Assembly: GCF_019464535.1 (NCBI RefSeq)
Contig: NZ_CP080507.1
Location: 1,950,001 to 1,982,000, forward strand
Origin: Horticoccus luteus
Lineage (GTDB): Bacteria; Verrucomicrobiota; Verrucomicrobiia; Opitutales; Opitutaceae
Direction: 5' to 3'
DNA length: 32,000 nucleotides
How positions within the stretch are numbered: the stretch's first letter is position 1; each line of letters begins with the position of its first letter. The translations under genes and the position numbers were made by a program. The notes under the pieces were generated by a model that ran no database searches, was not told the DNA's origin, and worked only from the letters and a program-made list of their open reading frames with translations. Shown here piece by piece: positions 7,448 to 30,033 of this stretch.

Positions 7448-8791
7448 TTACATGCCGGGAAAGCCGCCTTTGCCGCGCATGGCTTCCATCTGGCGCATCA
7501 TCTTTTTGCCGCCGCCACCCTTCAGCATCTTCATCATCTTCTGCATTTGCTGAAACTGCTTCAGGAGTTGGTTAACCTCGACGATCTTCACCCCGGCGCC
7601 GTTGGCGATGCGCTGGCGGCGGTTGCCGTTCAGGATCTCGGGCTTCCGGCGTTCTTGAATGGTCATGGACTTGATGATCGCCTCGGTGCGGCCCATCTGC
7701 CGCTCGGCATCGTCGGGCAAAGCCACGCCGCTCATGCCGGGCATCATGCCGATGATGCTCTGCATGGATCCCATTTTCTTCACCTGCTGCATCTGGGAGA
7801 GGAAATCCTCGAGGTTGAAGTCCGCTTTGCGGAGCTTCTCGGCCATTTTCTCGGCTTCCTTCTCGTCGATCGTTTCCTGGGCTTTTTCGACGAGGGAAAC
7901 GACGTCGCCCATGCCGAGGATGCGCGAGGCGAGGCGATCAGGATGAAAGACTTCGAAATCGCCCGTCTTTTCACCGGTGCCGACGAATTTGATCGGCACA
8001 CCGGTGATGGACTTGATCGAGAGCGCGGCGCCGCCGCGAGCGTCGCCGTCGAGTTTGGTCAGAATGAGGCCGGTAAGGGAGAGGGCGTCGTGAAACGTCT
8101 TGGCAACGTTGACCGCTTCCTGGCCCAAGGCGCCGTCAACGACGAGCAGCACTTCGTCGGGCTGCACGCGCGCGCGGAGTTTCTTCACCTCTTCGATCAG
8201 ATCGGCGTCGATTTGAAGGCGGCCGGCGGTGTCGAAGATGATGCAGTCGGCGGTGGCGGTCTGCGCGGCGGTGAGGGCGGCGACGCCGATGGCGGGCACG
8301 TCCTTGGAATTTCGGTCCGCGTAAAAGCCGAGCTCTTCCTGGCGGGCGAGAATCTCGAGCTGGTCGATGGCGGCCGGGCGGTAGACATCGCACGCGGCGA
8401 CGAGGGGGCGATAACCACGTTTCTTGAGAAGCTTGCCGAGTTTGGCCGTGGAGGTGGTTTTACCCGAGCCGTGCAAGCCGACCATCATGATCTTCAGCGG
8501 CCGCGCGCCGGAAAGCTGGGTGGTGCCTTCACCAAGGAGGCGCACCAATTCATCGTGGATGATTTTGACGACCTGCTGGCCGGGCGTGACCGATTTGGTG
8601 ACCTCTTGTCCGACGCATTGGGCTTGGACGCGTTCGGTAAATTCGCGCGCGACTTTGAAATGGACGTCGGCGGAAAGGAGGGCGGTGCGCACCTCCTTGA
8701 GTGCGTCGGCCATGTTTTCATCGGAGAGTTTGCCAACGCCGCGGAGGTTGCGCAGGGCCTGGCCAAGTTTGTCGGTGAGCGATTCGAACAT
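7448..8791 (-). CDS. ffh: Signal recognition particle protein Ffh
   Basis: 447 aa from [16 protein letters not shown]. GTPase motifs [14 protein letters not shown] and [10 protein letters not shown]. Met-rich M domain at the C-terminus. The 61-aa N-terminal extension in the track is rejected. Confidence 0.93.
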
Positions 8792-9035
8792 GAGAACGGC
8801 GAGTGAAACGACTCCGGGAAACTTATGAAAACAAATTCTGGGGCAAGCGGGTGACGCCGCTGATCTCGCGCTGACGGACCGCGCGACCGGCGGTTTGCGC
8901 GACGACGCCCGGGCCGCGCGAGGCGGTGTTTCCGTCGCTTGAGTGTCATACGGACCTCCGATCGCCGGAGGCACGTGAGAGGCACCAAATTCATTCTCGT
9001 CAAAGCCGAAACGTTACCGGATAAGGGCCGTCCCT

Positions 9036-15876: not shown

Positions 15877-15940
15877 GGCGGGCCACGCTGGAACCCGCCA
15901 TTGACAAGCCCCGCCGCGCCCTGATTGCCTTGTCGTTTCC

Positions 15941-16339
15941 ATGAACATCTTGATCGGTATTTTGACGTTCGTCCTGATCCTCGTTTCGCTTTTCCTCATC
16001 CTCGTGGTGCTGGCGCAGAAAGCCAAATCAGACGGCGGCATGGGGGCGGCCATCGGCGGCGGCATGGCGGAAACGGCGTTCGGCGCCGACACCAGCAACG
16101 TGCTCACCAAGATGACGATCAATGCCACGATCGCCTTTTTCGTGCTGACCTTCGCTCTTTATCTCGGCCACGTTTACCGCCGCAGTCACGCCCACGCGGC
16201 GAGCGGCGCGCTGCCGACGATCACCGTGCCGGTCAAGCCGACCGCGGCGCCTGCCGCCACGACTCCCGTGAAAGCCCCGACGGCTCCGCTTGCGACGCCG
16301 ACGGGCACGGCCACCACCACCGAAGCGTCGAAGCCGTAA
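15941..16339 (+). CDS. secG: Preprotein translocase subunit SecG with Ala/Thr/Pro-rich C-terminal extension
   Basis: Two TM helices flanking the Gly-rich loop ([20 protein letters not shown]), as in SecG. About 50 extra residues ([34 protein letters not shown]). Confidence 0.85.
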
Positions 16340-16347
16340 CCGGCCCG

Positions 16348-17232
16348 ATGAGATCGCCTCGTTTCACGCCCGCCGTTTTTTGGCGGGCGTTTTTTGTTTT
16401 CCTCGCGGTCGGAGCGGCCGGTTTGCACGCGCAGCCGGCATCGCGCGGCATCCCGCCGCCGAGCGGGTATGGTCATTTCGGGCAACCTGACCCGGCGGAA
16501 GGGCGCAAGGCGCTCGAGCAATTCCGCGCGGCTGGCATTCAAGGGAGCTATTACTTGGAGTTCACGTTGCGATTGATGCCTCGACGCGGACCCGAAAAGC
16601 GCGTCGCCGGGCGGATGTGGGGCACGCGTAACCACGCTGGGCCCGTTTCCCGAGTAGCGCTGCAGGACGACGACGAAACGCGTTTGCTCGTGCAAAATGG
16701 CGCCGATGCCGCGGTCTGGCGGAGCACGCGGACGGCACCGGATCCCGCAAAGGTGGCGGTGCAGGCCTTGTTTGAGCCCATTGCGGGAACGACCTTGGCT
16801 CCGTTCGATCTGCAGATGCCGTTTCTTTATTGGAACGATTTCGTTTACGAAGGCTTGGGACGGGTGCGGGGACGACCCGCGTATCGGTTTCGCATGTTGC
16901 CGCCGAAGGAATTTGCCCAGCAGTTCCCCGCGTTGTCAGCCGTGCGGATCTCGCTCGACAGCCAATTTTCCGCGTTGGTGGAAGCGGAGTTGCTCGACGA
17001 AAAGGGGCGGCCCATGAAGTCGATCTTGGTGGACGAACTGAAGAAGGTTGGGGACCAGTGGATGGTGAAAGCGGTGGACGTGCGCAATGAGGGCACGCGC
17101 GACAAAACGCGATTTGAGGTCACGGCGGTCGCGTTAGGATTGGATCTGTCGCCCCGCCTGTTCGCCGTCGCGGCTCTCGCAGATGAAATTACTCCGCCTG
17201 AGGCAGCGCGGATGGTGCGGTTCGAACCGTGA
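16348..17232 (+). CDS. Secreted hypothetical protein, LolA-like / outer-membrane lipoprotein-sorting fold (tentative)
   Basis: 294 aa from MRSPRFTPAVFWRAFFVFLAVGAAGLHA (signal peptide). The function call rests on weak resemblance only. The track ORF extension upstream overlaps secG in another frame. Confidence 0.55.
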   Translation: MRSPRFTPAVFWRAFFVFLAVGAAGLHAQPASRGIPPPSGYGHFGQPDPAEGRKALEQFRAAGIQGSYYLEFTLRLMPRRGPEKRVAGRMWGTRNHAGPVSRVALQDDDETRLLVQNGADAAVWRSTRTAPDPAKVAVQALFEPIAGTTLAPFDLQMPFLYWNDFVYEGLGRVRGRPAYRFRMLPPKEFAQQFPALSAVRISLDSQFSALVEAELLDEKGRPMKSILVDELKKVGDQWMVKAVDVRNEGTRDKTRFEVTAVALGLDLSPRLFAVAALADEITPPEAARMVRFEP

Positions 17233-21501: not shown

Positions 21502-22833
21502 ATGCGTGAGTTCGCGACAGCCCCGACCGTCTCGCCATCGGCGGCGCAATTGGCGGAGCACTTTTTTCGGCACGAAACGGGGCGGTTGCACGGGGTTTTA
21601 ATCCGCCGTTTCGGCGTGGAGAACCTTTCGTTGGTGGAAGACGTGGCCCAAGAGGCGCTGCTCAAGGCGCTGCGCACGTGGTCGATGGGCGGAGTGCCGC
21701 CGAATCCGTCAGCATGGGTGACCCGGGTAGCGATGAACCTTGCGCACGATGCATTGCGCCACCGCACGATGTCGGCAGGCAAGGAGACTGATATCGCCCG
21801 GCATTTTGAGCAGTTGAGGCCGGCGGAGGATTCGCCCGGGATGGAAGAACGAGCGATCCGCGACGACGCTCTGCGGTTGATGTTCGTCTGCTGTCATCCC
21901 GCTCTGGCGTCGGACGCGCAAGTCGTGCTCGCTTTGAAAGTCTTGTGCGGCTTCAGCACAACCGAGATTGCGGAAGCGTTTCTGAGCACCGAAGCCGCGA
22001 TCGAAAAACAGATCACGCGGACGAAGCGACGAATTCGTGAAGCGGGCATTGGCTTCGATCTTCCGCACGGCGACGGATTGGCTGTACGGCTCGATGGCGT
22101 GCTCGGCGTGTTGTATTTACTTTTCAATGAAGGTTACAAGGCGTCGGATGGGCCGCGCCTCTTGCGTGAAGATCTTTGCCTGGAAGCGGTGCGGCTGATG
22201 TCACTCTTGGTGCAGCACCCGGCGGGCGATGTCCCGCGCAGCCACGCGTTGCTGGCGTTGATGCTGTTGACGGCGGCCCGCTTTCCCGCCCGCGTGGATG
22301 CGCAAGGTGGACTGCTGCGACTCGACGGACAGGATCGCACCAAATGGGATGGCGCCATGATCGACCGCGGGCTGCAGCACCTCGGGCACGCGGCGCAGGG
22401 CACGGAGGTGAGCGCATATCATCTGCAGGCGGGCATCGCGGCGATCCACTGCACGGCGCCCGATTACGCGGGAACGGATTGGACACGCATTCTTCAACAT
22501 TACGATGAACTGCACCGGTTGAAGCCGTCGCCCGTGGTCGAGCTCAATCGCGCCGTGGCTTTGGCGCAGTTACGCGGGCCGCAAGCGGGGTTGGACGCCA
22601 TCGCGGCGATAACGGCGGCCGGGAAACTCGAACGTCATTACCTCCTGCATGCGGTCCGCGGCGAATTGCACTGGCGGCGACGTGATGATCAGGCGGCGGC
22701 GCAATGTTTTCGCCGCGCGCTGCAACTTGCCCGAGTCGGACCTGAGCAGCTTTATCTCACCCGGTTGCTGGAGCGGTCGGCGGATGCCGTGTTCGACGAC
22801 ATCACATTGCTCGAAGGCCGCCCGCCCGAGTGA
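21502..22833 (+). CDS. ECF sigma factor with long C-terminal TPR-like extension (ECF42-type)
   Basis: Sigma region 2 (VEDVAQEALLKALRTW) and region 4 (LCGFSTTEIAEAFLSTEAAIEKQITRTKRRI) are followed by about 230 extra residues. No adjacent anti-sigma gene. Confidence 0.85.
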   Translation: MREFATAPTVSPSAAQLAEHFFRHETGRLHGVLIRRFGVENLSLVEDVAQEALLKALRTWSMGGVPPNPSAWVTRVAMNLAHDALRHRTMSAGKETDIARHFEQLRPAEDSPGMEERAIRDDALRLMFVCCHPALASDAQVVLALKVLCGFSTTEIAEAFLSTEAAIEKQITRTKRRIREAGIGFDLPHGDGLAVRLDGVLGVLYLLFNEGYKASDGPRLLREDLCLEAVRLMSLLVQHPAGDVPRSHALLALMLLTAARFPARVDAQGGLLRLDGQDRTKWDGAMIDRGLQHLGHAAQGTEVSAYHLQAGIAAIHCTAPDYAGTDWTRILQHYDELHRLKPSPVVELNRAVALAQLRGPQAGLDAIAAITAAGKLERHYLLHAVRGELHWRRRDDQAAAQCFRRALQLARVGPEQLYLTRLLERSADAVFDDITLLEGRPPE

Positions 22834-24880: not shown

Positions 24881-24955
<75 letters not shown>

Positions 24956-25053: not shown

Positions 25054-25776
25054 TTAAAGCACTTCGTCGACACGGGCGGACTCGCCTCCGCCGACCAAGG
25101 CAAACGCATAACGCGCATCGGACCAAGTGGCGACGGCGTTGCGGGCAAAATGTGCGAGACTCGCGGAAACATCGGCGGGGCCACCATCGAGAGCGCACAC
25201 GTAAAGATGGTATTCGCCGCCGGCGCGGCTGAAGCACACCTCCCAGACGTCGCGGCCGGCAAAACGAAGGGTGCGGCAATGAGCGGGTTTTACTCGTGCC
25301 CAATCAAATGTGGGTGTAGCGGCGAGATGAAAGTTGGGATTGGCGAGATCGGCGCGCAATTCCACCGAGGCGTCCGCAAGGCCGATGTGATGGCCGCGTC
25401 GCACGTCTGCCGCGGCCCAACTCGCGAGTTGCGGCAAGAGGAAAGCGTCGGCGGACGGTGCAAAGCGATGCCATGAAAACACGCCGAGGAGCGTGAGGCT
25501 GGCAGCGATGGCGAGGATCACGGGCCACCGCCAAGAGGTAACGCGGGGCTCAAGCCGTGCGCCGGACAATATCGAATCGCGCAATCCCGGCGGCGGAGTG
25601 AGGGCGCGAACGTGCTCGGCGAACGCGGCATCCCATGCTTGCTCACGGGCTTGCCACGTCCGAAGAACAGGGTCGCGTTCGGCGCACGCCAGTGCTTCGC
25701 GGAAGAGGGGATCTGTCGCGTCTTGCCCGCTGGGACGATAGGCGCGCAGACGGAATTGGGCGTCTTGGTTGTTCAT
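25054..25776 (-). CDS. Single-pass membrane anti-sigma factor (putative) with periplasmic Cys/His-containing domain
   Basis: ATGA overlap with the upstream ECF sigma gene. Helical cytoplasmic N-domain of about 70 aa, one TM helix (WRWPVILAIAASLTLLGVFSW) and an extracytoplasmic domain of about 130 aa. No ZAS HxxxCxxC motif. Confidence 0.7.
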   Translation of the reverse strand: MNNQDAQFRLRAYRPSGQDATDPLFREALACAERDPVLRTWQAREQAWDAAFAEHVRALTPPPGLRDSILSGARLEPRVTSWRWPVILAIAASLTLLGVFSWHRFAPSADAFLLPQLASWAAADVRRGHHIGLADASVELRADLANPNFHLAATPTFDWARVKPAHCRTLRFAGRDVWEVCFSRAGGEYHLYVCALDGGPADVSASLAHFARNAVATWSDARYAFALVGGGESARVDEVL

Positions 25777-26312
25777 GGCGTCTGCTTTTTAGCCGGCAAA
25801 ACAAAGGGGACGACGGGCGCGGCGGCGCGACGATCCGCAAGCGCGGCCCGCAACTGGCTTTTGCCGCGCGCGAGGCGGGACATGACCGTGCCGATGGGGA
25901 CGTTGAGCGTCGTCGCGATCTCCTGATAGGATAGTTCTTCGAGGTAAAACAGCGTCAGCGGCGCGCGAAAAACTTCATCGACCCGCGTGAGTGCTTCCCA
26001 TGCGACGGCGGCATCGACGCGTCGCAATTGGTCGACATCCTGATCACTGAGTTCGGCCTCCGGAGCGTCTTCGAGGGCGGTCTCGCGCGCACCGCGGCGA
26101 CGGCCGCGGAGAAATTCGCGATAAAGCGTGGTGAAGAGCCACGTTTTAACCTTCGCCACATCGCGGAGACTGTGGCCCTTGCGCGCCCAAATATAGAACG
26201 TTTGCTGCGTGAGATCGCACGCGTCCGCGGTGTTGCGGGCGAGGCTGAGCGCGAACCGATAGAGACCGGTGTAGTGCTGGTCGACGAGCGCGGTGAAGAC
26301 GTCCTCAGACAT
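25773..26312 (-). CDS. ECF (sigma-24/group IV) RNA polymerase sigma factor
   Basis: 179 aa. Region 2 (YRFALSLARNTADACDLTQQTFYIW) and region 4 HTH (LSYQEIATTLNVPIGTVMSRLARGKSQLR). Confidence 0.9.
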   Translation of the reverse strand: MSEDVFTALVDQHYTGLYRFALSLARNTADACDLTQQTFYIWARKGHSLRDVAKVKTWLFTTLYREFLRGRRRGARETALEDAPEAELSDQDVDQLRRVDAAVAWEALTRVDEVFRAPLTLFYLEELSYQEIATTLNVPIGTVMSRLARGKSQLRAALADRRAAAPVVPFVLPAKKQTP

Positions 26313-26335
26313 GGGAAGGGGAGGGAGCGGACGCG

Positions 26336-26800
26336 TCAGGAGGATTTAGCGGCGGTGGAGGCGGAAGGGCGCGCGAACCACGTGTCGAGGGAGAAGAAGC
26401 CCGGGCCAAATGCGAGAACGATCAAGGCCGTGAGCAGAAAGAGAAAGGGCGTCGCTGAGGTACAGGCGTCAGGGTCGTTCCATAGGCGGGTGACAGAGGC
26501 GCGTTCGGCAGTGGCATAGGCCACACTCATGACGCCAATCAGCGGCAGGGCGGCGGGGCGCGCGAAAAGGCCCAGAGCGAGCAGGGCGCCGCACAGCAAC
26601 TCCGTGGCGCCGGCCGCCGCGGCATTCAGCATGGGCCACGGCACACCCAGGCTGCCGAAATACGCGGCGGTGCGGTCGAGATGGTGTAGTTTGCCCCATC
26701 CGGTGAAGACGAAGCCGATGCCCCAGTAAAGGCGGAGCGCGAGAAGTAGCGGCGACTGGAGCCACTCCCCGCATGTGCGGAACACGTTCGGTTGACGCAT
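26336..26800 (-). CDS. DoxX family inner-membrane protein
   Basis: 154 aa from MRQPNV. Four predicted TM helices with DoxX-like motifs (LALRLYWGIGFVFTGWGKL; ELLCGALLALGLFARPAAL). The longer track ORF start would overlap the upstream gene. Confidence 0.8.
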   Translation of the reverse strand: MRQPNVFRTCGEWLQSPLLLALRLYWGIGFVFTGWGKLHHLDRTAAYFGSLGVPWPMLNAAAAGATELLCGALLALGLFARPAALPLIGVMSVAYATAERASVTRLWNDPDACTSATPFLFLLTALIVLAFGPGFFSLDTWFARPSASTAAKSS

Positions 26801-26828
26801 GGTAACGATAGAGAAAGACGCGGGGAAT

Positions 26829-27770
26829 TTATTCCCGCGCGCACAACCAGCCGAGGCGCGTCCAATGCTCAAACCACTCGCGGATCAAGGCGGCTTGTTC
26901 TTCGGCGCACGTCCGGGAAGAACGAAAGGCCGCGCCGCAGGCGTCAGCAAGCGGCTGACCTCTTGCCAGCGCGCGCAAGAGGCGGAATTCGGAGGGAGCA
27001 AGGCGCCGGAAATATATTTGATTTTGAAACCGGTGCACGGCGAGGAACGTGGTCGCGGCGCGGAGCCGCGGACCGGCGAGGCCCTTGGCGGTGCGGCGGC
27101 CGGGACGCACTGTCTGGCTCGCCGCAGTGCGCAAAGCCGAGTCGTGCTGCTTCAAGGCGAGCAAGTAATCGTCGACCGCGAAGGACAGACGGAGCAGGGT
27201 GAGACACGGTTGCAGGGCGAGGCGGAGCGTGAGAGGATCCGCAGTGCGCATTCGCCGAACCGAAACGGGCGCGCGCGCGGCGGCATCGAAGGCGACGATC
27301 TGCGCCCACTCGAACGCTGCAAGATTGCGCGCTGCGGCCGTATGCGGTGCCGTGTGGCGTGGTTGCGCCGCGATGAAGCGTGGCAGGTGACGGCCGAGAT
27401 CGCGCAGAGTGAACGAACGAGAGGGATGGGTTGCGATGTAGGCTCGGGCGAGACGCAGAAATCGCGCTTCACCCAAATGCATCCTCAGCCCGGGAAAGTC
27501 TTCGCCGAGGGAATCGAGCAGGCGAAACCAATACATGCGGTTGTAGATTTCGATGCGATCGAGCGCCGACAAGCGGCCCGTGTCGCGCGCAAAGGTTTTT
27601 ACCACGGCGTGCGTGGCGCGTCCATCAACCCAGCGGCGTTGCGCGCGATCCTGCGCCGAGAGCGGGCGACTGACGGCGGCAAACATCACGCGCTGCAACG
27701 AATGCAAGTCATGCAGTGACTGAATCCGGCCGGGGGCCGCCGCAGGCAAGGGGCGCACACTTCGAGGCAT
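26829..27770 (-). CDS. DUF2063 domain protein (MbnC/HvfC/BufC-like partner of DUF692 enzymes)
   Basis: N-terminal DUF2063 pattern (LQRVMFAAV...IEIYNRMYWFRLLDSLGEDFPGLRMHLGEARFLRLARAYIATHPSRSFTLRDLGRHLPRFI). Starts 2 nt after the DUF692 stop. Confidence 0.8.
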   Translation of the reverse strand: MPRSVRPLPAAAPGRIQSLHDLHSLQRVMFAAVSRPLSAQDRAQRRWVDGRATHAVVKTFARDTGRLSALDRIEIYNRMYWFRLLDSLGEDFPGLRMHLGEARFLRLARAYIATHPSRSFTLRDLGRHLPRFIAAQPRHTAPHTAAARNLAAFEWAQIVAFDAAARAPVSVRRMRTADPLTLRLALQPCLTLLRLSFAVDDYLLALKQHDSALRTAASQTVRPGRRTAKGLAGPRLRAATTFLAVHRFQNQIYFRRLAPSEFRLLRALARGQPLADACGAAFRSSRTCAEEQAALIREWFEHWTRLGWLCARE

Positions 27771-27772
27771 GA

Positions 27773-28636
27773 TCAGGAGCGCGCGATCGCAGTCGCCGGG
27801 GCGGTGACGGACGAGAGAAAGCGATCAGCCTTCAGTGCTTCCGCATGCACTTCTTCGAACGAGGGAATGCGATCATCCCATTCGAGCAACGTGGCCGTAG
27901 CGCCGCAGCGCCGGACGGCGCGGTCGTAAAGTTTCCACACGGGATCGATCACCGGATGGTCGTGCGTATCGAGGACGTAGCGCTCGAATTTGGTGTGGCC
28001 GGCGATGTGAATCTGCGCGACCCGTTCGGCCGGCACCGCATCGATGTAGGTGCGCGGATCGAAGTCGTGGTTGCGGGAAGAGACGTAAATGTTGTTCACG
28101 TCCAGCAGCACGCCGCAATCGGCCTGGTCGACGACTTCGTTGAGAAACTCCCACTCGGTCATTTCCGAGGCCGTGAATTCGGTGTAGCTGCTGACGTTCT
28201 CCACGCAGATCGGCACTTCGAGAAAATCCTGCGCCTCGCGAATCTTCGCGGCGGCGTGCTGGGCGGCGATTCGGGTGTAGGGAATCGGGAGCAAATCGTG
28301 CGTGTAGGTGCCGTCGATGCTGCCCCAACAAAGGTGGTCGCTTAGCCAAGGCGTTTTTGTCCGGCGGACCAGCGCTTTCAACCGGCGGAGATGGTCGCGG
28401 TTCAGACGATCGGCCGAGCCGAAATAGAGCGACACGCCGTGCTGCACGACACGGTATTGCTCCAGAATCTGATCGAGCACTTCCAAGGGCCGACCTCCGT
28501 CGACAAGGTAGTTTTCAGAGATGATCTCAAACCAATCGACCGTCGGCTTCTGCCGCAGGATGTGCTGGTAGTGCGGCACGCGCAGTCCGATGCCGATGCC
28601 GTAGTCAGTGAAGTTGTTGAAGCGATTCGCAGGCAT
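27773..28636 (-). CDS. DUF692 / UPF0276 family multinuclear non-heme iron oxidase (MNIO, MbnB-like)
   Basis: 287 aa, TIM-barrel family hallmarks: GIGLRVPHY, WFEIISENY, QHGVSLYFGS, PWLSDHLCW, ENVSSY, LLDVNNIYVS, IHIAGH, LDTHDHPV and LLEWD. These include the candidate iron-ligand His/Asp/Glu positions. Confidence 0.92.
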   Translation of the reverse strand: MPANRFNNFTDYGIGIGLRVPHYQHILRQKPTVDWFEIISENYLVDGGRPLEVLDQILEQYRVVQHGVSLYFGSADRLNRDHLRRLKALVRRTKTPWLSDHLCWGSIDGTYTHDLLPIPYTRIAAQHAAAKIREAQDFLEVPICVENVSSYTEFTASEMTEWEFLNEVVDQADCGVLLDVNNIYVSSRNHDFDPRTYIDAVPAERVAQIHIAGHTKFERYVLDTHDHPVIDPVWKLYDRAVRRCGATATLLEWDDRIPSFEEVHAEALKADRFLSSVTAPATAIARS

Positions 28637-28662
28637 GGGCGGACAACGCGGCGGGCTGGCAC

Positions 28663-28693
28663 GAGCGGCGCGATCAGTGCGACCGCGCCGCTC
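28663..28693 (-). promoter_or_regulatory. Intercistronic 10-bp perfect GC hairpin between precursor gene and DUF692 gene
   Basis: On the minus strand, GAGCGGCGCG-gtcgcactgat-CGCGCCGCTC. It lies 19 nt after the precursor stop and 27 nt before the DUF692 ATG, with no U-tract. Confidence 0.5.
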
Positions 28694-28711
28694 GGAGGCG
28701 AGAGACGAGGC

Positions 28712-29023
28712 TCAGCCTTGTTTGGCGGGCGCGTCTTTGCCTTTGCAGGAGTCTTTCGCTTTGCAGGATTCCTTGGCCTTGCAGGACTCTTTCGCTTTGC
28801 AGGAGGCCTTGTCTTTACCGTCCTTGGCAGCGTCGGCCTTGGCCGGATCCGCTTTCGCAGAGCAGCCATCCTTGCCGTTGCAGGACATTTTGTCGCTGGC
28901 GTGCTCGGCCGTGGCCGGCTGGCCGGGAGCCGCTTCGGCGGAAAAGGCGCGTGGGGTCGAAGCGCCGGCGTAAATGCCCGCAAGGGCGGCGACGGCGAGG
29001 AGAGTTTTGGCGTGGTTCGTCAT
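28712..29023 (-). CDS. Secreted Lys/Cys-rich repeat peptide, putative RiPP (bufferin/oxazolin-like) precursor
   Basis: 103 aa. Signal peptide MTNHAKTLLAVAALAGIYAGA. Six Cys at positions 48, 54, 75, 81, 87 and 93, and four consecutive SCK[AG]K[EDED] hexapeptides. First gene of the DUF692 operon. Confidence 0.75.
   Translation of the reverse strand: MTNHAKTLLAVAALAGIYAGASTPRAFSAEAAPGQPATAEHASDKMSCNGKDGCSAKADPAKADAAKDGKDKASCKAKESCKAKESCKAKDSCKGKDAPAKQG
28733..28804 (-). repeat. Four tandem 18-nt coding repeats (TCCTGCAARGSNAARGAN), each encoding S-C-K-[A/G]-K-[D/E]
   Basis: Direct reading of the minus strand gives tcctgcaaagcgaaagag / tcctgcaaggccaaggaa / tcctgcaaagcgaaagac / tcctgcaaaggcaaagac. 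Confidence 0.9.
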
Positions 29024-29214
29024 ATAGTCGAGAACGGGAACTGAAGAGCGTCGGTCGCCGCCGCCCAGGAGGGCAGCGAGGAAGCGCCGACGGGATAGGA
29101 GAACGCATAAATGCTTCTATTCCCACAATTTTTGACCGCCGCGTCGTCGTGGCTGGGGTGGGCTGTCAAAATTTCATTTGGTCAACGCGCCGGGTGCGCG
29201 TTTTATTACGCCGC

Positions 29215-30033
29215 ATGGCAGACTCCGAACTTCACTCCCGCATTGCGCAGGGCCGGCGGGCAGTGCTCGCCCAAACCGACCTCTTACACGAAGGGTTTGG
29301 GCGGGTGGCCAGCCAGTGGAAAACAGATGGGACGCGCGTGACCGCGGTGGATCTGGCGATCTCCGAAAACATCATGCGCGCGGTGCAGGCGGAGTTTGAT
29401 GATGATTTTTTCAGCGAGGAGCTGACGCTGGCGAGTGGACCGGTGCCGCTGACCAAACGTTTCGCGTGGGTGCTCGATCCGATCGATGGCACCAATAATT
29501 TCGTGACCGGGCTCGCGCATTGCGCCATTTCGCTGGCGCTGCTCGACGCCGGCGAACCGGTTTATGGATTCGTTTATGACTTATCGCGCCGCACGTTGAT
29601 CGAGGGCGGACCGGGTTTCGGAGTTTCGGATGGCGAGCGGCGGACGGAAGTGGTGCAGACGGTCCCCGACCCGCAGAGCTTGATCGGATTTCACAGCCCA
29701 TATGACCGGAACTTCGCGCGACATGCAGCGGTGCTGGCGGAGAACTTCAAGATTCGCGCACTCGGCAGCAGCACCTTGCACCTGGCCTACGTGGCGACGG
29801 GCGCACTCGCCGGCGTGGTGGACCACAACGTGAAGATATGGGATATCGCGGCAGCGGTGGCGTTGTTGCGAGGCGCGGGTGGAGAAATTGCGTTTCTCAA
29901 CGGCGAACAACTTCCGCTGCGCCACTTCGATTTGCACATGGGCCGCATCTTCTACGTTGCGGGCAACGCGGCGATGACGACGCGGCTGCGACAACTGATG
30001 GCGTGCGGATCGCAGGACGTTGGTCAGACCTGA
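29215..30033 (+). CDS. Inositol monophosphatase family protein (SuhB/CysQ-like)
   Basis: 272 aa from MADSELHS. Motifs FSEE, WVLDPIDGTNNF and WDIAAAVALLRGAGG. The upstream part of the track ORF lies in the intergenic/antisense region. Confidence 0.85.
   Translation: MADSELHSRIAQGRRAVLAQTDLLHEGFGRVASQWKTDGTRVTAVDLAISENIMRAVQAEFDDDFFSEELTLASGPVPLTKRFAWVLDPIDGTNNFVTGLAHCAISLALLDAGEPVYGFVYDLSRRTLIEGGPGFGVSDGERRTEVVQTVPDPQSLIGFHSPYDRNFARHAAVLAENFKIRALGSSTLHLAYVATGALAGVVDHNVKIWDIAAAVALLRGAGGEIAFLNGEQLPLRHFDLHMGRIFYVAGNAAMTTRLRQLMACGSQDVGQT

Follow-up and report, generated by a model that had tools for sequence, protein, structure and literature searches.

The 32,000-nucleotide stretch of Horticoccus luteus DNA analysed here (contig NZ_CP080507.1, positions 1,950,001 to 1,982,000; hereafter the window) contains, on its minus strand, a real six-gene operon of the bufferin/captophorin kind, encoding a Cys-rich precursor peptide, a multinuclear non-heme iron oxidase (MNIO; DUF692), a DUF2063 partner protein, a DoxX-family membrane protein, an extracytoplasmic function (ECF) sigma factor and an anti-sigma factor. 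We read the locus as a whole as a Buf2-type bufferin (captophorin) cluster under cis-encoded, two-promoter sigma/anti-sigma control, and put the probability of this reading at roughly 75%. A preliminary description of the locus had reported six tightly packed same-strand open reading frames (ORFs), and the ORF listing of the window bore out their positions; the listing and the sequence together gave the reported gaps of 75, 2, 28 and 23 nt in gene order, followed by a 4-nt ATGA overlap between the sigma and anti-sigma genes. The features of the operon are as follows.

28712..29023, minus strand: precursor peptide gene, bufA2-like (ORF, 103 aa)
27773..28636, minus strand: MNIO (DUF692) maturase, BufB type (ORF, 287 aa; Pfam PF05114, NCBIfam NF050167)
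26829..27770, minus strand: DUF2063 partner, BufC / PME1 type (ORF, 313 aa; Pfam PF09836)
26336..26800, minus strand: DoxX-family membrane protein, BufD / HvfX-like (ORF, 154 aa from ATG; Pfam PF07681)
25773..26312, minus strand: ECF sigma factor (ORF, 179 aa; Sigma70_r2 and r4_2, TIGR02937)
25054..25776, minus strand: single-pass anti-sigma factor (ORF, 240 aa; weak NF052375 match; AlphaFold2 model)
29095..29123, minus strand: P1, ECF-type motif GGAATAG-N15-CTCCTAT, ~100 nt upstream of the precursor ATG
26808..26835, minus strand: P2, ECF-type motif GGAATAA-N15-CTCTAT, starting 35 nt before the DoxX ATG
29050..29091, minus strand: 5'-leader hairpin directly downstream of P1, predicted at -27.5 kcal/mol
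28663..28693, minus strand: GC-rich hairpin in the precursor-MNIO spacer, perfect 10-bp stem, no T-run
28733..28816, minus strand: 18-nt tandem repeat, units SCKAKE / SCKAKE / SCKAKD / SCKGKD (Tandem Repeats Finder)

Profile hidden Markov model searches of the six proteins supported the identities proposed earlier for the MNIO, DUF2063, DoxX, sigma and anti-sigma proteins, the last of them weakly. The MNIO matched Pfam PF05114 (MbnB_TglH_ChrH) across profile positions 1-261 of 263 with 365 bits against a cutoff of 25, and passed the NCBIfam model NF050167 (MNIO_BufB; 356.6 bits, cutoff 310), but scored below the cutoffs of the HvfB (259 bits, cutoff 360) and MbnB (44 bits, cutoff 325) models, as it did for those of ApyH and ChrH. 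Its residues E252-W253-D254-D255 align with E-R-D-F of the Lys-Cys enzyme 3BWW (LLEWDD versus LLERDF). Asp in place of Phe right after the catalytic-base Asp has been reported as typical of Cys-Lys MNIOs (FonB D249-F250, BufB2 D251; PMC13097082 section 14), in which it has been proposed to contact the substrate Lys (PMC13097082). The window enzyme carries this residue as Asp255, directly after the catalytic-base Asp254, and therefore agrees with the assignment of its precursor to the Cys-Lys group given below. Membership of the HvfB/oxazolin subfamily was considered and dropped on the HvfB score (259 versus 360) and on the Asp, rather than Phe, after the catalytic Asp. The DUF2063 protein, whose gene begins 2 nt after that of the MNIO, matched PF09836 through its N-terminal domain (62.6 bits, cutoff 27.2) but did not reach the NCBIfam HvfC model NF050145 (57.6 bits, cutoff 142), and no homologue of solved structure was found for it by sequence. 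DoxX matched PF07681 (71.7 bits, cutoff 23.6) and fell short of the narrower HvfX model NF050144 (62.9 bits, cutoff 80). Among the domains that the preliminary description had proposed to check, DUF692, DUF2063 and DoxX were thus found above cutoff and DUF2282 was not; the order precursor-DUF692-DUF2063-DoxX is, as it had stated, that of buf and hvf clusters.

The precursor begins with MTNHAKTLLAVAALAGIYAGASTPRAFS/AE, which shows the n-, h- and c-regions expected of a Sec-type signal peptide, in keeping with the earlier proposal (about residues 1-28, at 28940-29023; judged by eye rather than with a predictor). The 75-residue core that follows contains 6 Cys and 16 Lys. The Cys lie at 48, 54, 75, 81, 87 and 93, with spacings of 6, 21, 6, 6 and 6; four of the five spacings are thus six residues, and in four of six cases Lys is the next residue. 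Tandem Repeats Finder reported a period of 18 nt with 4.7 copies and 77% matches at 28733-28816. The precursor had been described as a perfectly periodic hexapeptide repeat, and the repeat is real; its units SCKAKE, SCKAKE, SCKAKD and SCKGKD differ, however, so that exact periodicity is confined to the distances between Cys in the last four units. No Pfam or NCBIfam model matched the precursor at E≤0.01, the Buf1 family DUF2282 (PF10048) included, and the best match at E≤10 was the BufA2 model NF050166 (13.4 bits, E=0.07), whose cutoff of 60 was not reached; canonical-looking acidobacterial and verrucomicrobial relatives, at 34-41 bits, also fell short of it. Neither the KC dyad nor the EGKCG unit of Lys-Cys precursors is present. 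The features found are instead those of the Cys-Lys group, namely a Sec signal, six Cys, multiple Cys-Lys motifs and a gene directly upstream of that of the MNIO. AlphaFold2, given a shallow alignment of 14 sequences of this low-complexity protein, returned a pLDDT of 46 and no secondary structure, a prediction of disorder that says little about the fold; for BufA1 and BufA2 of Caulobacter a small folded core has been reported.

To place the precursor, related loci and proteins were compared. When genomes were scanned with the MNIO, at least 588 relatives emerged, and the best 80 that were examined (73-82% identical; Acidobacteriota and Verrucomicrobiota) showed the order precursor-MNIO-DUF2063-DoxX in nearly all cases, with BufA2-like precursors consisting of a signal peptide and a core such as KHACKGQNSCKGKGGCKSSDNGCKGKNSCKGKGGC, in which six Cys are set at C-x5-C spacing and Cys-Lys dyads occur. 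Seventeen relatives of the window precursor were obtained by protein search; they are of two sorts, both found in six-gene loci: pure hexapeptide-repeat precursors with 6-12 Cys, for example P0002, in which SCKGKEGCKAKE is repeated, and hybrid precursors in which a window-type SCSGKDGCS module stands ahead of a canonical BufA2 core. Because its six Cys are mostly in C-x5-C spacing, hybrids with a BufA2 core exist, and its MNIO has the Asp typical of Cys-Lys enzymes, the window precursor is, as judged from sequence, a divergent, repeat-built member of the Cys-Lys (Buf2 / BUF_6/12Cys) group and no new precursor class. The preliminary description had placed a Lys-rich hexapeptide precursor outside the described systems, a view contradicted by the published Buf2/Cys-Lys group, which is characterized by C-x5-C spacing and CK motifs (PMC11626156, PMC13097082). 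If the disorder prediction is right, the peptide would be physically nearer to the EGKCG-repeat captophorins than to the folded BufA2 of Caulobacter. Among close relatives (P0002, P0004, P0005; L029, L036, L096, L109) the number of Cys hexapeptide units ranges from 6 to 12, and some arrays, that of P0002 for example, are near-perfect; this variation suggests that the 18-nt repeat expands and contracts. The named loci with accessory proteins and signal peptides most like those of the window indicate an Opitutales-like host in the Verrucomicrobiota.

The sigma factor scored 63 bits on TIGR02937 (cutoff 42.9), with Sigma70_r2 and r4_2 above their gathering scores, and reached no named equivalog in NCBIfam. 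The anti-sigma factor matched no Pfam family and, at 23.8 bits only, the generic anti-sigma model NF052375. Its AlphaFold2 model (pLDDT 77) comprises an N-terminal helical anti-sigma domain, one transmembrane helix at ~83-105 and a beta-rich periplasmic domain of ~135 aa. An identity as NrsF/DUF1109 was rejected, as the protein has no PF06532 match and one transmembrane helix instead of six. Membership of DUF3379 (PF11859, gathering score 33.2) was likewise rejected: the window protein was unmatched, and in the 8 of 12 anti-sigma relatives that were matched the best score was 21 bits, covering profile positions 18-118 of 232, that is, the N-terminal half only. When the periplasmic domain alone was searched against 1.84 billion representative proteins, 114 matches were obtained, nearly all 240-250 aa long and of the same architecture, and residues C167, C181, H190 and W218 are invariant across 81 representatives of the domain. 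The invariant Cys and His residues are predicted to lie on three neighbouring strands of the model. A fold search with the model gave RseB/MucB as the best match (E ~7e-3, TM-score 0.23) and none at E≤1e-3, a weak lead. The idea that such anti-sigma factors are extremely rare, suggested by a word-indexed search that gave 8 proteins, was abandoned after a metagenome scan gave 317 relatives.

The same scan gave 80 metagenome loci. In 21 the pair is attached behind DoxX, 34 have a free-standing pair and lack an MNIO cluster within 8 kb, and the length of the other 25 does not allow a decision. The sigma gene lies directly upstream of the anti-sigma gene in 78 of the 80 loci, with 59-70% identity to the window sigma factor, and in the other two the anti-sigma gene is ~100 nt from the contig end. 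The identical six-gene order recurs in L078, in L081/L082 and in 21 of the 55 assessable metagenome loci, and the arrangement is therefore not due to chance; only the metagenome contigs L081/L082 are also syntenic with the window in their flanks. A rearranged version was seen in L064 (3385-8464), where sigma, anti-sigma, DoxX, a BufA2 precursor, MNIO and an extra insert are followed by DUF2063.

Comparing the sequences upstream of genes in the window, in its relatives and at free-standing sigma/anti-sigma pairs brought out a motif in two parts, GGAATA(A)-N15/16-CTC(y)(t)A(T). A scan of the 32-kb window with the pattern GGAATAR-N14-16-BCTC returned 2 matches where 0.05 would be expected; both (P1 and P2) lie at gene starts on the operon strand, and none of 100 shuffles contained two. 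The motif precedes the precursor in all 14 related attached operons, at -91 to -107, and the sigma gene in 42 of 45 free-standing loci, at -33 to -44, a distance that leaves room for little or no leader at the latter. The distance from P2 to the DoxX ATG equals that from the motif to the sigma gene in free-standing loci. Internal copies stand ahead of DoxX in 13 of 18 distinct attached loci and ahead of sigma in 6 of 18, and L005/L006 have the motif ahead of both precursor and sigma. It also precedes verrucomicrobial Buf2 operons without a sigma gene within 6 kb (L010, L029, L036, L037, L043, L044, L045, L050, L058 and L066), while an upstream scan of the acidobacterial loci found no copy. Over all fetched loci there were 95 matches, versus 8 in shuffled sequence. 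This layout looks like that of an autoregulated ECF sigma factor with a small periplasmic-stress regulon, and there is strong reason to infer from it that the cis-encoded sigma factor reads the GGAATAA-N15/16-CTC motif. In the rearranged locus L064, copies were seen ahead of DoxX and ahead of the precursor and none was found ahead of sigma.

The other genes preceded by the motif encode DoxX-like proteins, DUF1223 proteins, a signal-peptide-bearing MsrA, an MsrP-like Oxidored_molyb protein and, in L064, the BufA2 precursor. A divergent DoxX-like gene follows the anti-sigma gene in ten free-standing loci (L093, L094, L099, L103, L104, L105, L108, L110, L143 and L162), and a strict scan found a motif copy ahead of it in seven of the ten; four of the ten (L103, L104, L108 and L162) have a divergent DUF1223 gene, with a motif copy in L103, L104 and L108. 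The genes for the MsrA and the MsrP/YedY-like molybdoenzyme (L043, 10790-11425; L045, 159-1181, minus strand) lie a few kb from motif-bearing Buf2 operons. This gene set overlaps the Caulobacter sigmaF regulon, which includes the two DUF692 operons, DoxX and YedY (PMC3511200), and the L043 and L045 genes echo its YedY.

The operon also contains two RNA hairpins. In 13 leaders, 92.3% of the alignment cells of the hairpin downstream of P1 are paired, versus 26-55% in controls with slid partner columns; compensatory changes were seen at five pairs, and the covariation score was reached by none of 500 shuffles. The 75-nt precursor-MNIO spacer folds at -34.2 kcal/mol, and 64 of 86 related loci have a hairpin with z < -2 in this spacer, in many cases with a T-run after it. 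In L029, L036, L045, L066 and L005 the spacer hairpin with its T-run resembles an intrinsic terminator, and the window hairpin is without a T-run. A hairpin after the precursor gene is the usual arrangement by which clusters for peptides that ribosomes make and enzymes then modify (RiPPs) keep precursor mRNA in excess. The preliminary description had taken the six genes as one transcription unit; given the second promoter motif at the DUF2063/DoxX junction and the strong hairpin after the precursor gene, transcription probably occurs as two nested units instead. The start of DoxX bears on this geometry: a longer ORF begins with TTG at 26872, and the ATG at 26800 fits both the 154-aa DoxX of the syntenic contig L081 and the position of P2. 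The upstream region at ~29100-29200, earlier called AT-rich, is mildly so (54% GC versus 62% for the whole window). Consensus scanning of the region found no sigma-70-type promoter and terminator-like sites at chance level only, and an Rfam search matched solely a tRNA-Met and left the leader unmatched.

The sequence of events that would connect these elements is as follows. The BufB-type MNIO and its DUF2063 partner most likely convert core Cys residues to 5-thiooxazoles, with a loss of 4 Da each, the best candidates being the four Cys of the SCK(A/G)K(E/D) repeats. Such chemistry is now expected of every MNIO-DUF2063 system that has been characterised, oxazolin included, whose oxazolone/thioamide structure has been revised (PMC13097082); the oxazolone/thioamide groups expected earlier are out of date, and we dropped them as the default. 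The modified peptide would be exported to the periplasm and sequester Cu(I), with DoxX as the usual accessory membrane protein of bufferin clusters. A periplasmic, modified, metal-binding peptide, as first proposed, is still the most likely product. A stress signal would meet the periplasmic domain of the anti-sigma factor and release the ECF sigma factor; this signal is probably copper or an oxidant that reacts with thiols, and the invariant Cys167, Cys181 and His190 would sense it. The sigma factor would then transcribe from P1 (the precursor, with its leader hairpin) and from P2 (doxX-sigma-antisigma, probably leaderless), in a self-amplifying response that should reset when buffering has relieved the stress. 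The spacer hairpin probably holds precursor mRNA above enzyme mRNA, and P2 would give doxX-sigma-antisigma a positive feedback independent of attenuation after the precursor gene. For bufferins, induction by copper, protection against it and thiooxazole chemistry have been reported (PMC11626156, PMC13097082).

Going further, we tentatively suggest, as a possibility that falls well short of even odds, that the anti-sigma periplasmic domain is a new, architecture-restricted sensor in which a Cys-Cys-His site would detect Cu(I) or thiol oxidants directly, and that the unit would be a self-contained circuit whose capacity is tuned through the 18-nt repeat. Because the induced bufferin would remove the same ligand from the periplasm, the six genes would sense, amplify, buffer and reset. 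NrsF, the unrelated six-transmembrane anti-sigma factor of Caulobacter, depends on two conserved periplasm-facing Cys (PMC3511200), NrsF C131S/C181S giving constitutive induction, and on this suggestion the Cys-Cys-His sensor would have converged on its two-cysteine logic.

Several observations weigh against the reading of the locus as a sigma-controlled Buf2-type cluster. Two of the six precursor Cys lack a following Lys, the precursor fails the curated BufA2 model (13.4 versus 60 bits), and its predicted disorder differs from the reported folding of Caulobacter BufA2. In Buf2 the modification is found on just four of the six Cys, with two in a disulfide (PMC11626156), and more than one modification pattern is conceivable here. 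For the sensor, the Cys/His geometry comes from a predicted model whose fold search was weakly RseB-like (E ~7e-3). As for P2, its -35 element overlaps the DUF2063 stop codon (…R-E-stop), and part of its conservation could therefore stem from the protein; L078 and L096 are without it. Finally, MsrA and MsrP among the motif-preceded genes indicate oxidant or HOCl stress as much as copper.

This last point leads to the alternative that oxidants or reactive chlorine, and not copper, are the signal, the pair sensing periplasmic thiol or methionine oxidation and the peptide acting mainly as a sacrificial redox buffer beside MsrA, MsrP, DoxX and DUF1223. The motif does precede secreted MsrA, an MsrP/YedY-like molybdoenzyme, thioredoxin-like DUF1223 and DoxX in related loci, the invariant residues of the sensor are Cys, Cys and His, and oxidative stress, besides copper and gold, induces such clusters (PMC13097082). 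On the other hand, all characterised bufferins and captophorins bind copper, and Cu, unlike Fe, Zn or Mn, induces the buf operons, which protect against copper (PMC11626156), and we regard an oxidant signal in place of copper as rather unlikely. As copper and oxidant responses overlap in known systems, the two are not mutually exclusive.

We consider it quite improbable that the small ORF encodes no MNIO substrate, or an unmodified one, and is instead a secreted, Lys-rich, low-complexity protein binding metal through plain thiolates like a metallothionein. Such a protein would account for the lack of a match to any curated precursor model and for the predicted disorder, and FonBC left three test substrates with a charged residue after Cys unprocessed (PMC13097082). 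Yet nearly all of the 80 related loci have a Cys-rich ORF with a signal peptide at the same place, the hybrids link the subfamily to canonical BufA2 by gradual steps, the MNIO has the Asp for which contact with the Lys next to Cys has been proposed in Cys-Lys systems, and Buf2, which bears CK motifs, is modified in vivo (PMC11626156). It is very improbable, too, that the sigma/anti-sigma pair is a mere neighbour that regulates unrelated genes while another factor uses the motif. That 34 of 55 assessable homologous pairs stand alone is compatible with this idea, but the gap between DoxX and sigma is 23 nt, the sigma and anti-sigma genes overlap by 4 nt, the motif lies directly ahead of sigma in 42 of 45 stand-alone pairs, the classic layout of ECF autoregulation, and it lies ahead of the precursor in 14 of 14 attached operons and ahead of both in L005/L006, with no sigma-70-type promoter found in the region by consensus scan.

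Among described systems, Caulobacter vibrioides buf2ABC shares with the window the precursor features (Sec signal, six Cys, C-x5-C spacing and Cys-Lys motifs), a BufB-type MNIO, a DUF2063 partner and control by an ECF sigma factor. The window precursor differs in failing the BufA2 model, in its 2+4 rather than 3+3 arrangement of Cys, in its 18-nt tandem repeats and in its predicted disorder; the window cluster has DoxX, which buf2 lacks, and contains the sigma and anti-sigma genes, which for buf2 are elsewhere; its probable host is verrucomicrobial. The Caulobacter sigF-nrsF/buf1ABCD locus, like Cupriavidus and Legionella GIG-type loci, also has an ECF sigma factor and a membrane anti-sigma factor beside precursor-MNIO-DUF2063-DoxX, and it resembles the window in a regulon of bufferin operons, DoxX and a YedY/MsrP-type enzyme and in two conserved periplasm-facing Cys in the anti-sigma factor. 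The window anti-sigma factor, by contrast, lacks PF06532, has one transmembrane helix instead of six and a folded periplasmic domain of ~135 aa; moreover, the window precursor is not DUF2282, the sigma genes are at the 3' end of the operon, and there are two motif copies. Oxazolin (HvfABCD), fontiphorin and gonophorin are alike in having a repeat-built, Lys-rich, probably unstructured Sec peptide of variable copy number, in a gene order that includes DoxX and in an expected product with several Cu-binding 5-thiooxazoles. The repeats of these EGKCG-repeat captophorins are, however, pentapeptides in Lys-Cys register, whereas those of the window are hexapeptides in Cys-Lys register, and the window MNIO is below the HvfB cutoff with Asp instead of Phe after the catalytic Asp; a sigma/anti-sigma pair inside such clusters is not described in the literature examined. 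Methanobactin MbnABC shares the action of an MNIO on Cys of a ribosomal peptide to give a copper ligand, but it uses MbnC rather than a DUF2063 partner and a leader peptide rather than a Sec signal, yields an oxazolone-thioamide product, and serves copper acquisition under induction by copper starvation.

At its flanks the unit is bounded by a tRNA-Met gene (24881-24955, plus strand), which runs towards the anti-sigma gene's 3' end, and on the other side by a gene for an inositol monophosphatase (29215-30033), which is divergent. Another ECF-type sigma factor, unrelated to that of the operon and 443 aa long (21502-22833, plus strand), with Sigma70_r2 and r4_2 and a long C-terminal DUF6596 extension at 122 bits, lies ~2 kb from the operon, and a 435-aa protein with a LolA_like domain is encoded elsewhere in the window (15925-17232, plus strand).

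The operon itself is of a known kind, and both claims of novelty in the preliminary description were overstated, because the precursor falls in the Cys-Lys group and sigma genes next to bufferin clusters have been published. SigF/NrsF adjoins buf1 and controls buf1 and buf2 (PMC11626156, PMC3511200), and genes of the sigma-70 family have been reported in 9-23% of MNIO neighbourhoods, NrsF also being among the frequent neighbours. The part of the second claim that stands is that this type of anti-sigma factor and its attachment to a Buf2-type cluster are undescribed in the literature examined, the attachment recurring in at least 24 loci; the same holds for the anti-sigma family with its Cys-Cys-His periplasmic domain, for the promoter motif and the regulon it predicts, and for the conserved leader hairpin. 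The published landscape of MNIO clusters places sigma and NrsF genes in Buf1 clusters and not in Buf2 clusters. In addition to the window, seven Acidobacteriaceae loci (L001, L002, L004, L008, L009, L012 and L072; ~8250-8880 in each) have a different sigma gene after DoxX in canonical Buf2-type clusters, which therefore counter this statement; their sigma factors are 27-30% identical to that of the window, a homologous anti-sigma factor was not detected, and the GGAATAA motif is absent from these clusters.

Bufferins and captophorins form a very large, recently recognised class of bacterial copper-stress peptides, whose regulation has been elucidated in a single model, that of Caulobacter SigF/NrsF. 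The window locus represents a second regulatory solution, in a different phylum and with an unrelated anti-sigma factor, and means that the published rule of Buf2-type clusters lacking sigma genes needs qualification. Its motif is readable from sequence and predicts a regulon made up of the bufferin operon, DoxX, MsrA, an MsrP-like enzyme and DUF1223, which is therefore testable in uncultured Verrucomicrobiota, and its six genes offer a compact cassette of sensor, amplifier and product for heterologous study.

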